This document shows, one piece after another, positions 148 through 6,711 of a stretch of 18,410 nt of DNA (position 1 is the stretch's first letter; each line of letters starts with the position of its first letter). The notes beneath the pieces are model-generated. The model did not search any database. It was not told the origin of the DNA and saw nothing but the letters and a program-made list of their open reading frames with translations. The translations under genes were made by a program, and so were the position numbers. This stretch comes from an archaeon (GTDB lineage Archaea > Nanobdellota > Nanobdellia > Pacearchaeales > GW2011-AR1). The stretch is from assembly GCA_043810775.1 (NCBI GenBank), contig JBDRNU010000024.1, forward strand, positions 1-18,410, read 5' to 3'.

Positions 148-537
148 TCAGATTTCCTCTAAAAGACCCTCTAGTCTTTCTCGCCATCTTGCTACCCAAA
201 CTATCCAGAGTTTAGATTTAGCTTCTAAATAAGGTATATTATCTCTATTAGTAATAGCTCCAAGATAACAATTAATCATATCTTTATAGATTCCAACTGT
301 TGCTTCGTCAGCAGTTTCATTGTATGATTTTTTAAGAGTTTTAGTATTATATTTTTTCAGATCTTCATCAAGAGTCCCACATATATCGGAAAGTTTTTCA
401 TCAAATTCCTCAGGCCTGTTACTTCCAAAGCATTCTGGTCCGCAGTCCATGATATCGTATGCTCTCTGCCTAAGATACCCTAAATTCATTTTCTTAGTTT
501 TCTTTGTTGTTTTTTCCTTAACTTTTTCTTTTACCAT
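148..537 (-). CDS. Hypothetical protein, 129 aa, Lys-rich N-terminus
   Basis: ATG start 3 nt after the upstream stop, SD-like GGTGAGG at 552-546, fits operon tiling; no recognised motif. Confidence 0.75.
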   Translation of the reverse strand: MVKEKVKEKTTKKTKKMNLGYLRQRAYDIMDCGPECFGSNRPEEFDEKLSDICGTLDEDLKKYNTKTLKKSYNETADEATVGIYKDMINCYLGAITNRDNIPYLEAKSKLWIVWVARWRERLEGLLEEI

Positions 538-540
538 TTT

Positions 541-1047
541 TTATTCCTCACCTAATATAGAGACAATTTTACCTAATCTACGACCAAGGTCACTACAATC
601 TCGTATTAATCCTTCATTTTCTTTTTGGAAATCTTCTATTTTGCTCTCTCTATCAATAAGAAGGTTATGGACATCACAATATCCTGACAAAAGATCATTC
701 TTATCTTGAACAAGTTCTTGATAAGGTTTTCTTTTAAGTAATTTTACTCTAAGTGATAATCTAGGCTTGCTCTTTTTCATTATTGAATCATAGGTAAATG
801 TTTGGAGCTCATTTAATAAATATTCAAAACTACTCCCTGTTGATAGGATAATAGGCTCATCTGGGCAACCTTTTTTTATTTCAGCACGATGAGGGATAAT
901 TTTTCCATGATATTTATCTTCTTGCAGATGATATCCTACTAATAAATCGCTTTTATTAATTAGGCTCACTGTACTTCTTACAAAAGAGTTCATTCTTTCC
1001 CATTGCAATTCTTCTAATCCCATTTTATTTTTCGTAACTTTCTCCAT
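541..1047 (-). CDS. Hypothetical protein, 168 aa, probable C-terminal coiled coil
   Basis: Start overlaps the end of the NAPRTase-like gene; heptad-like C-terminus (LLIDRESKIEDFQKENEGLIRDCSDLGRRL). Confidence 0.75.
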   Translation of the reverse strand: MEKVTKNKMGLEELQWERMNSFVRSTVSLINKSDLLVGYHLQEDKYHGKIIPHRAEIKKGCPDEPIILSTGSSFEYLLNELQTFTYDSIMKKSKPRLSLRVKLLKRKPYQELVQDKNDLLSGYCDVHNLLIDRESKIEDFQKENEGLIRDCSDLGRRLGKIVSILGEE

Positions 1048-2410
1048 TTTGGTTTTTTATTTTAACTTGTTCAAAAAGAGCTTGAAGATTATCACTTATT
1101 TTAACTGGGAACACTACTTTTTCAGATATATTGAATATTTCCTGGGGGAATTTGGGTATTTGACTTAGGAAATGCTGTTTTATTTGGTCTGTTGAAGGAA
1201 GTTTCATAAGCAAGTCTCCTTCATCCATTATCTTTATTAGAAGTCCTTGATTATCAGATACTTCTTCGGCGAGAACAATCTGCCTATGAATTATTTTTCC
1301 ATCTTTAATAAAATTGCAGACTTGTTTTTTTCCAGGATAACTTACTTTTTCAGATGCTAGCTTAATTTTATACACAATCTTATTGTTTTTCTCAAGTTCA
1401 ACCATCTTAAATACAACTTCTAGTTTTGGAGCGTCTGTTGAATTTACCACTTCTGTTGCTACTATGTACAAGTCTATTTTTGCACCGGCATTAATCATTT
1501 TCTTGATTTTATATTCGTCATAATTTCCTGCTGCTATAATTTGGATGTAGTTTAATCCTTCCTTATTTAATCTTTCTCTTACTTTGATACTTTGTTCAAC
1601 ATGGTCTCCACTATCTAGGGCAATTGCTCTTAGTTTTCTTCCTGTTTTTTCTGTTTCTTTTGCAACTTGAATAAAATTTTCTAATCCTTTGTCAAAATCA
1701 TAAGTGTCTATTAATATCATGCTTCTTTCTGGATTGTATTTTGTGAATGCCCTAAAGGCTTCAATCTCATTATCAAATGATTGGATGCAGAAATGTGTAG
1801 CTGCCCAGCTTTCTTGTCTTAAATCTCCACTTTTAAATGAGTGAAAAGTCATTGAAGATGAGTCAAGACCTACCATTTTTGCTATTCTAACTGCTTTAAT
1901 TCCTGACTCTATTCCATGAGACCTTACATGAGTCATACCAATCGTACAATTCATTGCAGTAGTTCTCACTCTTGCAAATTTTGATGCAAGCATTGTTTGG
2001 TGCATTATGGTGTTGATTACAAATTGCTCCATTAAAGAAAGCTCTATTACTGTTCCTGTTATTCTCATTACAGGTTCTCCTGGAAAACAGATAGAACCTT
2101 CTGGCATTGCCCAAATATCTCCTCTAAACCTGAATTTTCTTAGATATTGCATGAAGTCGTCATCATATCCATAAACTTTTTTAAAATAGTCTAGGTGGTC
2201 TTCTGTGAATTTCATATCTTTCAAAAAATCAATTATTGAGTGGACTCCCCCCAATACATAGTAATTTCTCTTATCTGAATCTCTTATTGTTACTTCAAAT
2301 GTTGCCTTTGTATCTTGCATACCCTCTTTAAAGTATACATAAGATAGGTTTACCCTTACAGCGCTTGTGAAAAGAGGCAAGTCTTTTTTACCTATTATTT
2401 CTTTATCCAT
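1025..2410 (-). CDS. pncB: Divergent nicotinate phosphoribosyltransferase (PncB/NAPRTase family, type II PRTase) homologue
   Basis: Family motifs ATFEV.IR, FRFRGDIWAMPEG..CFPGEP, LASKFAR, H...QSF..E.EAF, LIDTYD, LDSGD, IIAAGNYDE, VFKMVE, K..SEKVSYPGKKQV. Several substrate motifs are altered, so the symbol denotes family only. Confidence 0.85.
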   Translation of the reverse strand: MDKEIIGKKDLPLFTSAVRVNLSYVYFKEGMQDTKATFEVTIRDSDKRNYYVLGGVHSIIDFLKDMKFTEDHLDYFKKVYGYDDDFMQYLRKFRFRGDIWAMPEGSICFPGEPVMRITGTVIELSLMEQFVINTIMHQTMLASKFARVRTTAMNCTIGMTHVRSHGIESGIKAVRIAKMVGLDSSSMTFHSFKSGDLRQESWAATHFCIQSFDNEIEAFRAFTKYNPERSMILIDTYDFDKGLENFIQVAKETEKTGRKLRAIALDSGDHVEQSIKVRERLNKEGLNYIQIIAAGNYDEYKIKKMINAGAKIDLYIVATEVVNSTDAPKLEVVFKMVELEKNNKIVYKIKLASEKVSYPGKKQVCNFIKDGKIIHRQIVLAEEVSDNQGLLIKIMDEGDLLMKLPSTDQIKQHFLSQIPKFPQEIFNISEKVVFPVKISDNLQALFEQVKIKNQNGESYEK

Positions 2411-2990
2411 TTTTCTCTATTAATTTATTTAATTCACCAAGCAGTTCAATAGGATCATCATAAACTTTAATAGGAGATTTTTCAACTACCTCAAATTCAT
2501 GTTGCAGTTCTTTTCTATTCCCAGGTGTTAACACATAAGTTGGGATTCCTAAGTGAGCACTAATTTGAGTTTCTAGTTTAGTTGTGCATGGTTCTCCAGC
2601 CCTAGTATATGCAATTGTTGCGTCTCCGCTAGAAAGCATCCTATTAATTCTATCCATAGCTTTTGCTCTGATATTTTCTTTAGTAGTTTGCCTTGGCTTT
2701 GGTGTAAAGCTTATGTAATCATATAACTTAATATCTCCGATTCCTAATGCTTTGTATTCATCCCATTCTTCTTTATTTGAAACAGGTGTATACGCTCTTC
2801 TAATAGTAGAAATGTTCCTTTTTCTTGCATGGTAAACAACTTGCTCTGGAAATCCAATAGTGCCTCCTGTTTCAAGAGTTAGAAATTTACTTCCACTTAA
2901 CTCAAGCAACCCTTCTGCAATTATCTTTGCAGCTTCCTTACTAAATTCTTCTTCTGCACTCTTCCTTGTTCCGCATAAATTTATTTCCAT
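2403..2990 (-). CDS. SLOG/LOG (Smf-DprA/lonely-guy, TIGR00725-like) Rossmannoid nucleotide-binding protein
   Basis: N-terminal strand INLCG, LETGGTIGFP glycine loop, R..RM...GDATIAY, T..E helix (TTKLE), LGIPTYVL and C-terminal VYDDPIELL match LOG-family architecture. Confidence 0.65.
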   Translation of the reverse strand: MEINLCGTRKSAEEEFSKEAAKIIAEGLLELSGSKFLTLETGGTIGFPEQVVYHARKRNISTIRRAYTPVSNKEEWDEYKALGIGDIKLYDYISFTPKPRQTTKENIRAKAMDRINRMLSSGDATIAYTRAGEPCTTKLETQISAHLGIPTYVLTPGNRKELQHEFEVVEKSPIKVYDDPIELLGELNKLIEKNG

Positions 2991-3051
2991 TTTTTCTAGT
3001 ACTTTATTTACTCTAAAATAGTAACATTTAAACCACTACTTAAATCTTTGC

Positions 3052-3083
3052 CGTAAAAAATTTACGTCAGATTAGCAAGATTT
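3052..3083. promoter_or_regulatory. Candidate TrmB operator in the divergent promoter region
   Basis: Inverted repeat CGTAAA-AAA-TTTACG (3052-3066) just upstream of a BRE/TATA-like AAGATTTAAAAA that lies about 22 nt before the trmB ATG. Confidence 0.45.
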
Positions 3084-3109
3084 AAAAAGTCTAATTAAAG
3101 ATAAATTAT

Positions 3110-3844
3110 ATGATTCAAGAGCTTCAAAAATTCGGATTAAGTGAAAAACAAGCGAAAGTATATTTAGCAAATCTTGAATTAGGAGAAGCAACAGCCTCTG
3201 ACATCTCAATCAAAAGCAATCTTCCAAGAACTCTTGTTTATGATCTTCTTGAAAGACTAATTGAATTAGGGTTAGAATCCTACTCAATAAAAGCTGGTAA
3301 AAAATATTTTATTCCTTCAGATCCAAAAGAATTATCACGAATTCTTAAAGAAAAGCAGCAGGCAATCACTGAAATAATGCCCAAACTAGAAGAAATCAAC
3401 AAAATAAAAGGCTTCAAACGTCCCAAAGTTGAAATCTATGAAGGACCTGAAGGAATGAAAACAGTAATGAATAAAATGCTGAATTCAGGTGCAAAGGAGC
3501 TTTTCTCATACGGAAGTTCACGTTCATCATTTGAGGTAATACCTTATTTTATGGAAAACTGGCATAGAGAAAGAATAAAAAAGAAAATCAAGGCAAGAAT
3601 GATTTACAATAATACAAAAACAGCAAGGGAAAAAGCAAGAAAATTCAAGCATACTCTCCCTTTGGCACAACATAAGTTTATGCCAATAAATCTAGAATCT
3701 CCCACAGCAACGTTAATATATGGAAATAAAGTCGTTCTTCAGTCATGGACAAAAGAGCCATTTGCAGTAGAAATTGAATCTGAACTAATGGCTCAAAACC
3801 ATAAAGAGTATTTCGAAGCACTCTGGAAAATAGCTGAAAAATGA
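3110..3844 (+). CDS. TrmB-family transcriptional regulator (N-terminal wHTH plus effector-binding domain)
   Basis: LQKFGLSEKQAKVYLANLELGEATASDIS....LPRTLVYDLLERLIELGL wHTH; VEIYEGPEG; IYGNKV; YFEALWKIA. Confidence 0.92.
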   Translation: MIQELQKFGLSEKQAKVYLANLELGEATASDISIKSNLPRTLVYDLLERLIELGLESYSIKAGKKYFIPSDPKELSRILKEKQQAITEIMPKLEEINKIKGFKRPKVEIYEGPEGMKTVMNKMLNSGAKELFSYGSSRSSFEVIPYFMENWHRERIKKKIKARMIYNNTKTAREKARKFKHTLPLAQHKFMPINLESPTATLIYGNKVVLQSWTKEPFAVEIESELMAQNHKEYFEALWKIAEK

Positions 3845-4380
3845 AAATTACAATTACAGGCAAGCATGGAGCAGGGAAAACCTCAGTTGCAAAAATCCTG
3901 GCAGAAAAATTAAATCTTAAATTTTATTATACAGGGCAGATGATGAGAGACCTGGCTAAAGAAAGAAAAAAATCACTGCTTGAACTAAGTGAGATAGCTA
4001 AAAAAGATATTTCAATTGACAAAGAAATTGACGAAAAAGTAATTAAAATAGGGGAAAAAGAAGATAATTTCATATTTGATTCAAAAATAGGATTTTATTT
4101 TATTCCAGACTCGATTAAAATCTTTCTTGACGTTGATTCAAATATTGCTGCTCAAAGAATTTTCTTTCATAAAAGGCATGATGAAAAAGAGAATATAAAT
4201 CTAGAAGAAACAGGGAAAAATATTAAAAAACGTCTGGAGTTAGAAGGAAGGTGGAAAAATATCTACAATATAGATTACCACGACAAGAAGAATTATGATA
4301 TTATTATTAATACCTCTAATCTCACAATCCAAGAAGTTGTGGGAAAAATACTAAAAGAACTGGGAAAAATCAAAAAATGA
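3841..4380 (+). CDS. cmk: Cytidylate kinase, archaeal type
   Basis: ITITGKHGAGKT P-loop, G.MMR.LAKE, IDKEID, IKIFLD, R...YNIDY.D...YDIIINTS; ATGA overlap with trmB. Confidence 0.88.
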   Translation: MKITITGKHGAGKTSVAKILAEKLNLKFYYTGQMMRDLAKERKKSLLELSEIAKKDISIDKEIDEKVIKIGEKEDNFIFDSKIGFYFIPDSIKIFLDVDSNIAAQRIFFHKRHDEKENINLEETGKNIKKRLELEGRWKNIYNIDYHDKKNYDIIINTSNLTIQEVVGKILKELGKIKK

Positions 4381-5009
4381 TTCCTAAAATCTCGCCAATT
4401 TTTGCAGATTATCGCGAAAAAAATTCGCTAGTTATAGCCGAGCTCTTCGAGCTCGGAGCAAAGCCAGAATTCACCAATTTGCTTGTTGCTGACTTTATCA
4501 TCAAAAACACTGCAATTGAGCGAAAAACAGTAAATGATTTTGTCAACAGCATGATAAATAAAAGGCTTATTAGACAGCTGGAAGAAATCAAGCAATATCC
4601 CCACTATCTGCTTGTAATTGAAGGCCTTGACCATCAGGAATTATACGACGACTCTAGTAAAGGAGTGCACGCAAATGCTATTCGTGGTTTCTTATTATCT
4701 ATCTTGCTTGAATACCAGGTTCCAATAATTTTCACAAAAGATTACAGAGACACAGCAAAATTTCTTTATATTCTTGCAAAAAAGCAAGAATCAGAGCTGG
4801 GAATTCGTGCCAAAAAAAGAGTAATGTCCCAAAAAGAACAATTGCAATTTATTCTCGAAGGATTCCCAGGAATAGGCCCAAAAACAGCAAAAAAGCTTCT
4901 TTCCAAATTTAAAACACTAAAAAAAATAATAAATTCTCCTCTAGAAGACCTTAAAAAAGAAATAGGGAAAAAAGCAGAAATCTTTAGTTTAACTGATAAA
5001 TTCTACTAG
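4377..5009 (+). CDS. xpf: Short XPF/ERCC4 structure-specific endonuclease (nuclease plus HhH2, no helicase)
   Basis: ADYRE, ADF, IERKT..DF..S....RL..Q catalytic motif, LVIEG, and HhH motif FPGIGPKTAKKLL. Confidence 0.9.
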   Translation: MIPKISPIFADYREKNSLVIAELFELGAKPEFTNLLVADFIIKNTAIERKTVNDFVNSMINKRLIRQLEEIKQYPHYLLVIEGLDHQELYDDSSKGVHANAIRGFLLSILLEYQVPIIFTKDYRDTAKFLYILAKKQESELGIRAKKRVMSQKEQLQFILEGFPGIGPKTAKKLLSKFKTLKKIINSPLEDLKKEIGKKAEIFSLTDKFY

Positions 5010-5010
5010 A

Positions 5011-5295
5011 CTAAAGGCGCCTGATAAAATAATCAACATCTACACTATAAGTAGCCTCTGAAATATCTCCATTAGTAGTAACTGAATATCTGTCTGAAAC
5101 TCCCCTTTCTCCAAAATAATTAATTACATCTTTTTTCAGACTCTCTAAAATCTCTGGTGTTGCATTGTGTAGTCTTAATACTCTTTTTTCCTGAATCTTA
5201 CCAGCCACCTTTATAAAATCACTGGCTAAATTTTCAGCTAGTTTTTCTAGTGTTTTCCTGTCAATTTCCCTATGGTTAACATCTACCTCACTCAT
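5011..5295 (-). CDS. Hypothetical protein, 94 aa, third gene of the pyrBI operon
   Basis: ATG 2 nt after the pyrI stop; fills the gap exactly to the convergent xpf stop. Confidence 0.7.
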   Translation of the reverse strand: MSEVDVNHREIDRKTLEKLAENLASDFIKVAGKIQEKRVLRLHNATPEILESLKKDVINYFGERGVSDRYSVTTNGDISEATYSVDVDYFIRRL

Positions 5296-5297
5296 TT

Positions 5298-5756
5298 TTA
5301 ATTATGCAAGTTTAATTTTAATTCCTCTCCGCTAAAGCAAGCACTGCAATAGTGGCAATTAAACATGCCCCCTTTATATCTTATTAAAGAATTAACTTTC
5401 TGGCTAGTATCATTAGTTATGCAGTTAGAATTTGCACAATATACAATGTTTCTTAATACAAGAGGAATAACTGCCTGCTTTTTCTCAACTACCTGTCCGC
5501 TCCTAATAATACTGATTGTAGCTTCAGGTGCAATCAGTGCCACTAAATTAAGCTCTTCACTGCTCAATTCTCTAGCCTCAATTTTAATAAATCCTTTTTC
5601 ACCTTTCCTGTTGCTCTTATAATGATCTCCTAAAGAAATTCTCCCAAGCTTCTGGCTGTCTGCACTTAAAATTCTAGCAACTCGCCACACAACATTTGGA
5701 GGTAAGTGATCTATAACAATCCCGTTTTCAATGTATCCTATTATTCTTTTATCCAT
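5298..5756 (-). CDS. pyrI: Aspartate carbamoyltransferase regulatory subunit
   Basis: IENGIVIDHL, K..IKIE, ALIAPEATISIIR, Zn ligands CANSNC and CHYC; adjacent to pyrB. Confidence 0.96.
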   Translation of the reverse strand: MDKRIIGYIENGIVIDHLPPNVVWRVARILSADSQKLGRISLGDHYKSNRKGEKGFIKIEARELSSEELNLVALIAPEATISIIRSGQVVEKKQAVIPLVLRNIVYCANSNCITNDTSQKVNSLIRYKGGMFNCHYCSACFSGEELKLNLHN

Positions 5757-6711
5757 TTTTTAAAGCGCCTGTAACCAAGGCAATTAACGCTTTTCTTACA
5801 TACAGTCCATTTTCAGCCTGCTTAAAATAATGAGCATAAGTCATATCATCTACATCTCTTTCAATTTCATCTACTTTCGGAAGAGGGTGCATAATCTTAA
5901 AACCAGATTTTAAATTCACACTGCCAAGAATTTGCTTTGTAAGGTGGTATTTATTGCTTATTCTTAAATACTCTTCTTCACCTTCCAGCCCTTCAGGAAA
6001 TCTCTCCCTCTGAATCCTAGTCATATATAAAATCTCAGCATCTGGAAGAACTCTCTTCAAGTCATCTAGTGAAAATTCCCGATACTTTAGCCCTAACCTA
6101 GATAATTCATCTAACAAAAAATGAGGCATTCTCAAGCTTTCCGGAGACACAAAAAAAACCTCGCACTCCTTATATTTTGACAAAGCTAAAGCTAAAGAAT
6201 GCACAGTCCTGCCATATTTTAAATCTCCAGCCATTATAATTTTTACACTATCAATTCCTCCTCTGACAGCCCTAATAGTGTACAAATCAAGCAAAGTCTG
6301 AGTAGGATGCTGGTTCTGGCCATCTCCAGCATTAATTACTGGGGAAGTCATTATATCTGCAACTAATCTGGCTGAACCGTCTTTTTTATGCCTCATTACA
6401 ACAACACTTGGCTTATATCCCTCAATCATCTTTGCAGTGTCAGTTAAAGTCTCGCCTTTCTTAATAGAGCTTGCTTCAACATCAAAATCCAGGATACTTC
6501 CACCCATATGGAGCATGGCTGACTGAAAACTTGAGAAAGTCCTTGTGCTTGGCTCAAAAAACAAAGGAGCCATTATTTTTCCTTTCATAATATTATCATA
6601 TTTCGCAGGATTTTTCTCTATATCTCCGGCCAAATCAAGAATAAAATCTATTTCCTCTTTTGTTAACTCATTTATAGATATAATATCTTTCCTAATAAAT
6701 GATTCTTCCAT
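5749..6711 (-). CDS. pyrB: Aspartate carbamoyltransferase catalytic subunit
   Basis: FFEPSTRT, KGETLTDT, VMRH, INAGDG..QHPTQTLLD, GDLKYGRTVHS, YMTRIQRER, MHPLP. Confidence 0.98.
   Translation of the reverse strand: MEESFIRKDIISINELTKEEIDFILDLAGDIEKNPAKYDNIMKGKIMAPLFFEPSTRTFSSFQSAMLHMGGSILDFDVEASSIKKGETLTDTAKMIEGYKPSVVVMRHKKDGSARLVADIMTSPVINAGDGQNQHPTQTLLDLYTIRAVRGGIDSVKIIMAGDLKYGRTVHSLALALSKYKECEVFFVSPESLRMPHFLLDELSRLGLKYREFSLDDLKRVLPDAEILYMTRIQRERFPEGLEGEEEYLRISNKYHLTKQILGSVNLKSGFKIMHPLPKVDEIERDVDDMTYAHYFKQAENGLYVRKALIALVTGALKNG

Follow-up and report, generated by a model that had tools for sequence, protein, structure and literature searches.

We analysed an 18,410-nucleotide stretch of archaeal DNA (the window; GTDB lineage Nanobdellota, Pacearchaeales; contig JBDRNU010000024.1 of GenBank assembly GCA_043810775.1), which carries a gene for a nicotinate phosphoribosyltransferase (NAPRT) homologue with extensive active-site replacements. 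The gene belongs to a conserved variant family that is previously undescribed, as far as our literature search reached. We consider it somewhat probable that its product is a repurposed long-type NAPRT paralogue that works with a SLOG-superfamily partner and not in the salvage of nicotinamide adenine dinucleotide (NAD). The window genome (G000) comprises 995 kb in 26 contigs and is 80% complete. The two genes at issue are:

1025..2410, minus strand: variant NAPRT-like protein (P0001), 461 aa, assigned by family models, alignment to 2F7F and AlphaFold2/Foldseek
2403..2990, minus strand: candidate SLOG-superfamily (TIGR00725 / SLOG cluster4-like) partner, 195 aa, assigned by predicted structures and weak hhalign matches

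The NAPRT-like open reading frame (ORF) is uninterrupted, and its product matches the Pfam models NAPRTase_N (E 4e-28) and NAPRTase_C (E 4e-6); the Pfam catalytic-domain model PF04095 gave no match at E ≤ 0.01. NCBIfam NF009131 scores it at 338 bits against a cut-off of 330, and five PRK09243 sub-models score it under cut-off. The best solved relative is the E. faecalis NAPRT 2F7F/4MZY (HMMER, 2F7F E 3e-50), with the short archaeal NAPRT 2I14 matching at E 1e-14. An AlphaFold2 (AF2) model built from 39 relatives reached a predicted local distance difference test (pLDDT) score of 93.1 and a predicted template-modelling (pTM) score of 0.91. Foldseek aligned this model to 4MZY (E 2e-42, TM-score (TM) 0.92), to human NAPRT (4YUB, TM 0.83) and to the short archaeal enzymes (2I14, TM 0.72; 1YTD, TM 0.70). 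By these models the window protein is a full-length, confidently folded NAPRT homologue, with the predicted two-domain fold of a type II phosphoribosyltransferase (PRT).

The original prediction for this gene, made without database searches, had listed six motif replacements in the base-pocket region. All six were seen again in a HMMER alignment to 2F7F and in MAFFT alignments:

T15 S16 A17 V18, in place of TD[LM]Y
M159 T160 H161 V162 R163 S164 H165, in place of FG.RR.[HQ]; the first Arg is lost and the second retained
S184 S185 S186 M187, in place of [GA]TSN
W202 A203 A204 T205 H206 F207, in place of GT.AHS; the His is retained
I263 A264 L265 D266 S267 G268 D269, in place of VR[LI]DSGD
Y315 I316 V317 A318 T319, in place of [FW]GVGT

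The scaffold motifs, which had been described as intact together with the phosphoacceptor His, are unaltered in the full-length ORF: H206, DTYD (235–238), DSGD (266–269) and PGKKQV (359–364, the PG.KQV motif). To place these changes, 212 homologues were collected, and the 202 of 300–800 aa were aligned and scored on four features (Arg 162, Arg 264, an aromatic residue at 18 and G[TS] at 202–203). This scoring yielded 153 canonical, 47 variant and 2 unclassified proteins. The motif changes are not due to chance, because the replaced positions D16, Y18, R162, G202, T203, R264, G316 and G318 are 96–100% invariant in the 153 canonical homologues (D16 and Y18 in 147 each; T203 in 152; R162, G202, R264 and G318 in all 153).

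Seven active-site residues with published roles map, through the 2F7F alignment, to V18, H161, V162, H206, F207, A264 and K335, and only two of them are retained: the phospho-acceptor His (H206) and a Lys (K335). According to Marletta et al. 2015 (PMC4442680), with numbers for E. faecalis/human, stacking on the pyridine ring falls to Y17/Y21 and a van der Waals contact to T162/L170, and R163/R171 binds a phosphate of phosphoribosyl pyrophosphate (PRPP) and is structurally conserved in all three human type II PRTs. The phospho-acceptor His is H205/H213; S206/S214 contacts pyrophosphate and plays a part in nicotinate specificity; K333/K396 binds pyrophosphate; and R262/R318, called "the major player in catalysis", engages the carboxylate of nicotinate, the ribose of PRPP and the adenine of ATP. 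The stacking Tyr is V18 in the window protein (Tyr in 147 of 153 canonical proteins; Gln, His and Ser in 13, 7 and 5 of the 47 variants). The R318/R262 equivalent is A264 and that of R171/R163 is V162 (Arg in 153/153 canonical proteins at both positions), and S214/S206 corresponds to F207 (Ser in 136/153). The position of K396/K333 is Lys in 45 of the 47 variants, with gaps in the other two. Realignment to the E. faecalis structure thus leaves the Tyr and Arg positions replaced (V18, V162, A264). The original prediction saw the changes as concentrated in the base pocket, which did not hold: the loss extends further, because of three residues with an assigned PRPP-binding role only one is left, and the missing R171, R318 and S214 equivalents, with PRPP and ATP roles, are joined by the GVGT loop.

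The variants share a common origin in our tree (IQ-TREE quick search, LG+C20, SH-aLRT support only), from which 71 pocket-flanking alignment columns had been deleted beforehand. The tree comprised 86 rows (48 variants and 38 canonical proteins) and omitted 123 of the 153 canonical proteins, the 30 kept being hand-picked over the score range. Also omitted were variant fragments shorter than 400 aa, P0013 (a near-duplicate of P0012), L007, L024 and P0138; the last is scored variant, resembles a degraded canonical protein, and was excluded from later steps. All 48 variants fall on one side of a single branch (SH-aLRT 98), and the window protein shares a group (support 100) with P0002 and P0003, so that its closest homologues are not canonical and carry an altered pocket too. 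By this tree the variants are a single, apparently old clade, mainly of Patescibacteria and DPANN archaea. The 90% cluster of P0002 includes a Candidatus Pacearchaeota archaeon protein named nicotinate phosphoribosyltransferase, and other variant loci come from Nealsonbacteria, Buchananbacteria, Kerfeldbacteria, Parcubacteria, Moraniibacteria and similar groups. A three-residue insertion at 198–200, ahead of the His loop, is shared by the variants, which differ among themselves at D16, Y18, R162, G202, T203, R264, G316 and G318.

Pairwise comparison of 20 positions that are near-invariant in canonical proteins disclosed how the former pocket changes. Identity at these sites is 90–97% between canonical proteins at any divergence, and is 10%, 15% and 28% between variant pairs against backgrounds of 33%, 39% and 49%. 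Median site entropy among variants is 2.99 at the 20 sites versus 2.17 over all sites. Clade-wide, the former pocket thus changes more quickly than sites do on average. In the subclade that holds the window protein, former pocket sites evolve like average ones, with pocket-site identities to P0002, P0003, P0005 and P0006 of 0.70, 0.55, 0.45 and 0.45 against overall identities of 0.57, 0.53, 0.40 and 0.41. The suggested check, whether the substitutions define a conserved clade, was borne out as regards the clade, but no single conserved new pocket accompanies it. For the same variability across the clade we rejected the idea that one substrate was simply exchanged for another and a new conserved pocket established.

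Such a pattern could arise if the protein were a pure pseudoenzyme that has lost catalysis altogether and acts as a subunit with a structural or regulatory task, such as a ligand sensor or a controller of the SLOG protein. This purely non-catalytic role is the main rival to a repurposed enzyme. It would account for the loss of the R171, R318, S214 and Y21 equivalents and of the GVGT loop, for the former pocket evolving faster than the average site, and for a strongly conserved scaffold whose gene is tightly coupled to its partner. The residues that did not change speak otherwise. H206, E215, D235, Y237 and R147 are present in 47/47 variants, K144, T236, D266 and S267 in 46/47, and R163 and K335 in 45/47. 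Conservation specific to the variants is seen at K172, N296, E320 and E331. That H206, D235, T236, Y237, D266, S267, K335, R163, K144 and R147 are invariant or nearly so is difficult to account for unless the protein performs phosphoryl or Mg chemistry, or at least binds a phosphate ligand, and we regard the pseudoenzyme as unlikely. From the retention of H206, the acidic motifs and the basic residues, we infer that phosphoryl/Mg chemistry, or at least binding of phosphorylated ligands, is retained.

A decaying or recently acquired junk copy would fit the patchy distribution of the gene. Only 2 of 40 sampled relatives have a homologue, both canonical by motif, and in an even sample of 301 Patescibacteria genomes 9 match, 8 of them with variants. 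An even sample of the class gave matches at E ≤ 1e-30 in 40 of 351 genomes (G000 included), and the best 20 loci comprised 2 variants (the window and L108) and 18 canonical genes. Against decay stand the intact ORF with its confident AF2 model, the deep clade with invariant residues, and conserved synteny. GC content is 32.7% in the gene, equal to the window's 32.9%. The nearest relative with available DNA (L091, 53% identical) gave a nonsynonymous proportion (pN) of 0.28 and a saturated synonymous proportion (pS) of 0.753, which is consistent with purifying selection; saturation of pS means that no dN/dS ratio is derivable. A junk copy is scarcely credible, and decay was rejected on the clade tree, the invariant residues and the pocket analysis. 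The view that the gene is not decaying was upheld by its intact ORF, its place in a single clade and the altered state of its nearest homologues; overall, the original prediction was confirmed as an observation and only partly supported in its interpretation.

In Patescibacteria, 4 of the 8 variant-bearing genomes in the even sample hold 2–3 copies, and variant NAPRT-like genes are prone to duplication. A Buchananbacteria genome carries a tandem variant pair (L012 6001–8789), and genomes G163, G204 and G329 hold 2–3 dispersed copies from different subclades. Separately, a same-class genome that is 99% complete contains a canonical NAPRT match with one in-frame TGA (L119; G352:C2:22752–24089).

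The gene immediately upstream of the NAPRT-like gene encodes the candidate SLOG partner. Its reading frame ends 8 nt into the NAPRT-like gene in the window and 4 nt into it in L091 and L108. The ORF gave no Pfam match at E ≤ 0.01, PF18306 included, and no NCBIfam match; a word-based homologue search returned only itself, and a two-sequence profile search returned three proteins. Its L091 homologue is 33% identical (E 8e-20). An alignment of the SLOG partners displays a Gly-rich loop TGGT.GFP, a G..T..E motif, and a conserved Arg and Glu. The Atlas model of the ORF (pTM 0.82) lies closest to PF18306/TIGR00725 clusters (TM 0.73). Our own AF2 model (pLDDT 68) found the molybdenum cofactor (Moco)-carrier chains 6Y01/2IZ7, TT1465 (1WEK) and DprA as its best matches, with TM 0.5–0.6 and E 1e-4 to 3e-3; we take these chains to be SLOG-superfamily members. 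By hhalign, the three-member SLOG family matches the L108 protein at E 5.8e-4. In earlier comparisons with SLOG neighbours from the Candidate Phyla Radiation (CPR), the window ORF alone gave E 0.45 and, together with L091, E 0.018.

Gene context was compared over 25 variant loci (the window, L091, L108, 11 from a genome-collection scan that used a 10-row alignment as query, and 11 from the Patescibacteria sample) and 90 canonical loci (71 from the genome-collection scan and the 40-relative sample, L102, and 18 archaeal loci). In 9 of the 25 variant loci, the variant gene is immediately preceded by a SLOG/LOG-like gene in the same orientation:

L007, L008, L012, L014, L016 and L108 (3.6e-14): SLOG neighbour recognised by PF18306
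L098: SLOG neighbour recognised by PF03641
the window and L091: SLOG neighbour placed without Pfam support

None of the 90 canonical loci matched the SLOG profiles, nor did L092 and L093, which were left out of the variant/canonical classing. Neighbours of about 190 aa in L107 and L103 were considered as SLOG proteins and rejected for want of SLOG similarity, and are uncounted here. From their order and overlap, the SLOG and NAPRT-like genes are a recurrent and putatively translationally coupled pair.

Independence from NAD salvage is suggested first by the window genome itself. Besides the window gene, G000 holds no further NAPRTase_N match. Its contig C25 (locus L090) carries a canonical salvage operon:

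5371..6525, minus strand: short archaeal-type NAPRT, 384 aa (PDB 2I14, E 3e-26)
4805..5374, minus strand: PncA-like isochorismatase (nicotinamidase model, 62 bits, under cut-off)
3900..4808, minus strand: NadE (TIGR00552, 162 bits, cut-off 64)
2814..3428, minus strand: archaeal-type nicotinamide mononucleotide adenylyltransferase (NMNAT; 97 bits, under cut-off 127)
within the same operon, minus strand: 165-aa protein with a Nudix-box-like motif recognised by eye

The C25 short NAPRT keeps TD.Y, FG.RH, GT.PH and VR.DT in the alignment. Since this operon is complete, the route from nicotinamide to NAD needs no window gene, which is therefore not the housekeeping NAPRT. Last in the operon (L090 2023–6525, minus strand) comes a gene for a Ser/Thr protein kinase, an unusual companion of NAD genes; its start and the NMNAT stop overlap. 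No more than 3 of 40 relatives have an orthologue of the short NAPRT.

Other carriers present a similar picture. Among 11 GTDB genomes with variant loci, 8 match the NAD_synthase model at E ≤ 0.001, and only the G051 match is long and strong (94 bits). The others reach 18–33 bits and cover no more than about the first 140 positions of the model, in most cases the first 90 only; they are read as other PP-loop ATPases, leaving a convincing NadE in 1 of 11. A canonical PF04095 copy is found in 2 of the 11 (G046 and G051), each away from the variant gene. Among 18 variant-bearing Patescibacteria genomes, the NadD model matches 2 at E ≤ 0.001 with none over cut-off, only G051 being solid, and the NadM model matches 4, again with none over cut-off (best 39 bits); the NadM match in G046 adjoins that genome's canonical PRT. 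The full module is also present in G687, which belongs to the same family as the window genome and is 92% complete; this genome showed no NadM match, no short NAPRT and weak PP-loop hits only. The variant gene is apparently independent of Preiss–Handler NAD salvage in G000, and in most carriers.

These results bear on a further alternative, that the protein is still a pyridine PRT of NAPRT or NAMPT type with a remodelled pocket, feeding NAD synthesis. Its full NAPRT fold (TM 0.92 to 4MZY) would suit this, as would the public naming of relatives P0013 and P0216 as nicotinate phosphoribosyltransferase; TIGR01513 also scores the window protein at 335 bits (cut-off 297) and, with NF009131 likewise above cut-off, would lead a standard pipeline to the same name. 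All four nicotinate/PRPP-specific residues are missing and their positions vary within the clade, PF04095 gives no match, G000 already owns a canonical NAPRT in a complete salvage operon, and most other carriers are without a convincing NadE or NMNAT, the two that have them keeping a canonical PRT alongside. A pyridine-feeding role is accordingly improbable in our estimate.

Several points, the TIGR01513 score among them, weigh against a repurposed paralogue working with a SLOG partner. In the relevant part of PMC4442680, the human residue roles come from docking and earlier mutagenesis, and about half of the activity with ATP persists in the human R318A and Y21A mutants, so the window protein could have residual PRT activity. 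The variability of the old pocket suits loss of any small-molecule site as well as diversified substrates. The carriers' lack of NAD enzymes is to be read as "not found" rather than as proven absence, because most are incomplete metagenome-assembled genomes (MAGs) of unstated completeness and the NMNAT models under-score even G000's own NMNAT. A recognisable SLOG neighbour is missing in 16 of the 25 variant loci; of the 25, 12 (the 11 Patescibacteria-sample loci and L108) have flanks of only 1.5 kb. The SLOG profiles were built from 2–5 sequences, and canonical loci were scanned with those profiles and not with Pfam. Finally, the window partner is assigned to the SLOG Rossmannoid fold from predicted structures, while hhalign of the three-member family against PF18306-positive CPR SLOG neighbours gave E 9e-4 at a probability of 22%.

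If the window protein is indeed a repurposed paralogue, it would keep Mg-dependent phosphoryl chemistry, either as ATP-driven His phosphorylation or as binding of a ribose-phosphate ligand. Together with its SLOG partner it would act on a nucleotide-like compound whose base part depends on the lineage, and it would make no nicotinate mononucleotide (NaMN) for NAD. Further genes around the pair, and a divergent regulator in particular, allow an extension of this proposal:

3110..3844, plus strand: TrmB-family transcription regulator, 244 aa (Pfam TrmB PF01978, 2.8e-14)
2991..3109, no strand: 119-bp divergent intergenic region between the SLOG and TrmB-like genes
541..1047, minus strand: orphan ORF, 168 aa, sharing 23 nt with the 3′ end of the NAPRT-like gene
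148..537, minus strand: orphan ORF, 129 aa, on the same strand beyond the 168-aa ORF

The TrmB-like gene is divergent from the SLOG/NAPRT-like pair, and a PF01978 score of 53 bits (cut-off 25.6) places a TrmB winged-helix domain at the N-terminus of its product. The same divergent position is occupied in L091 (41% identity, E 1e-59), L108 (27%, E 4e-28) and L014. A triad of TrmB-like, SLOG and variant genes is thus found at four loci (the window, L091, L108 and L014), and in L026 and L039, too, the variant gene has a TrmB-like neighbour. It is rather unlikely, though worth stating, that variant NAPRT and SLOG under a ligand-sensing TrmB-like regulator make up an undescribed nucleotide-handling system of ultra-small symbionts (Patescibacteria, DPANN). 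There, an ATP-charged phospho-His barrel would transfer or capture a ribose-phosphate unit on lineage-specific acceptors, and the LOG-like partner would form or cleave the matching N-glycosidic bond. Acceptors differing by lineage would account for the fast-evolving pocket.

A bolder version of this nucleotide-handling proposal would make the NAPRT-like protein a phosphodonor for adjoining swivel-His modules (4/25 loci). C-terminal swivel-His proteins of the phosphoenolpyruvate (PEP)-utilizers type (360–490 aa) flank the variant gene in three loci, and a full PEP-synthase-like gene stands beside it in a fourth:

L094, 3–1307: swivel-His protein
L097, 364–1446 and 2927–4381: swivel-His proteins
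L012, 8792–10231: swivel-His protein
L010, 3535–5961: full PEP-synthase-like gene

Swivel-His proteins and the variant NAPRT-like protein are both phospho-His proteins by type; the adjacency, at 4 of the 25 variant loci, is suggestive only.

A different chemistry would use a larger ribosyl-pyrophosphate donor, such as an ADP-ribose derivative, or would process NAD/ADP-ribose signals with the SLOG protein. A phage NAMPT-like transferase of an NAD reconstitution pathway offers a likeness. In its favour, the changed parts are the 5-phosphate loop (GVGT) and the R171 equivalent, and Nudix genes lie near L024 and L105. SLOG domains have also been proposed to process or sense ADP-ribose derivatives, according to a passage in PMC9503650. 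The pyridine-binding Tyr and Arg are lost too, no PRPP-synthetase-like gene was seen beside any scanned locus, and Nudix adjacency amounts to just 2 of the 25 variant loci. We hold this donor switch to be very improbable.

The remaining surroundings of the pair were also inspected. For positions 541–3844 no RNA data set was listed, and the DNA data sets listed had word shares of at most 0.20. The 119-bp intergenic region presumably holds both promoters, judged from its position; a sigma-70-type promoter and terminator scan found nothing above shuffled sequences there, using bacterial models on an archaeal host. A perfect palindrome, CGTAAA-AAA-TTTACG, lies in this region at 3052–3066. It could be an operator, and being short and AT-rich it could plausibly have arisen by chance. 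The stop of the TrmB-like gene overlaps the start of a cytidylate-kinase-like gene (3841–4380, plus strand), which is followed by an ERCC4/helix-hairpin-helix (HhH) nuclease gene (4377–5009, plus strand). Each of these overlaps is 4 nt, so the TrmB-like regulator is probably co-transcribed with a nucleotide kinase. On the other side, the 129- and 168-aa orphan ORFs gave no family and no relatives in related loci. The 168-aa ORF had no Pfam or NCBIfam match and did not resemble the downstream gene in L091, and its Atlas model (pTM 0.25) had no credible neighbour; it may be co-transcribed with the NAPRT-like gene and is not part of the conserved module.

Public pipelines label the variants nicotinate phosphoribosyltransferase, and metabolic reconstructions of Patescibacteria and DPANN may on this account credit these genomes with niacin salvage, although the sequence lends that step no support. 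A new activity, if present, would make the family a fourth functional branch of type II PRTs beside the quinolinate, nicotinate and nicotinamide enzymes, and would open a first way into the function of the uncharacterised SLOG cluster4/TIGR00725 proteins. Should the nucleotide-handling proposal be right, cells that make neither nucleotides nor cofactors could salvage, exchange or neutralise host heterocycles. The pair is small, soluble-looking and conserved, which makes direct in vitro testing feasible. Our literature search returned no description of the variant family or of a SLOG plus type II PRT pair, the primary SLOG survey (Burroughs et al. 2015) being outside its coverage. It also returned no paper naming nicotinate phosphoribosyltransferase in Patescibacteria/DPANN or the Candidate Phyla Radiation, and nothing in full text joining TIGR00725 with phosphoribosyltransferase.

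Among known systems, a comparable arrangement is that of YpsA, a SLOG-family protein whose gene forms a conserved pair with a PRTase-domain gene, as stated in a section of PMC6459960. That pair is bacterial and of a different SLOG clade, and the section leaves its PRTase type unstated. For the window partner, the predicted fold matches SLOG cluster4/TIGR00725 proteins and LOG phosphoribohydrolases. True PF18306/PF03641 members hold its position in L007, L008, L012, L014, L016, L098 and L108, whereas the window copy is too diverged for Pfam. We know of no SLOG cluster4/TIGR00725 member with a tested function. The short archaeal NAPRTs (P. furiosus 2I14, T. acidophilum 1YTD) have a type II PRT barrel, as the window protein does; the short C25 NAPRT keeps TD.Y/FG.RH/GT.PH/VR.DT and sits in a PncA–NadE–NMNAT operon, whereas the window protein has neither. 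Long-type NAPRT (PncB; TIGR01513/PRK09243; 2F7F/4MZY, 4YUB) has its domain order and fold in common with the window protein, which likewise keeps the phospho-acceptor His, DTYD, DSGD, PG.KQV and the K396-equivalent Lys. Unlike long-type NAPRT, the window protein is without equivalents of Y21, R171, S214, R318, G209/T210 and the GVGT loop, has a three-residue insertion before the His loop and gives no PF04095 match; and the variant gene, not linked to NadD/NadE in most carriers, is paired with a SLOG gene.

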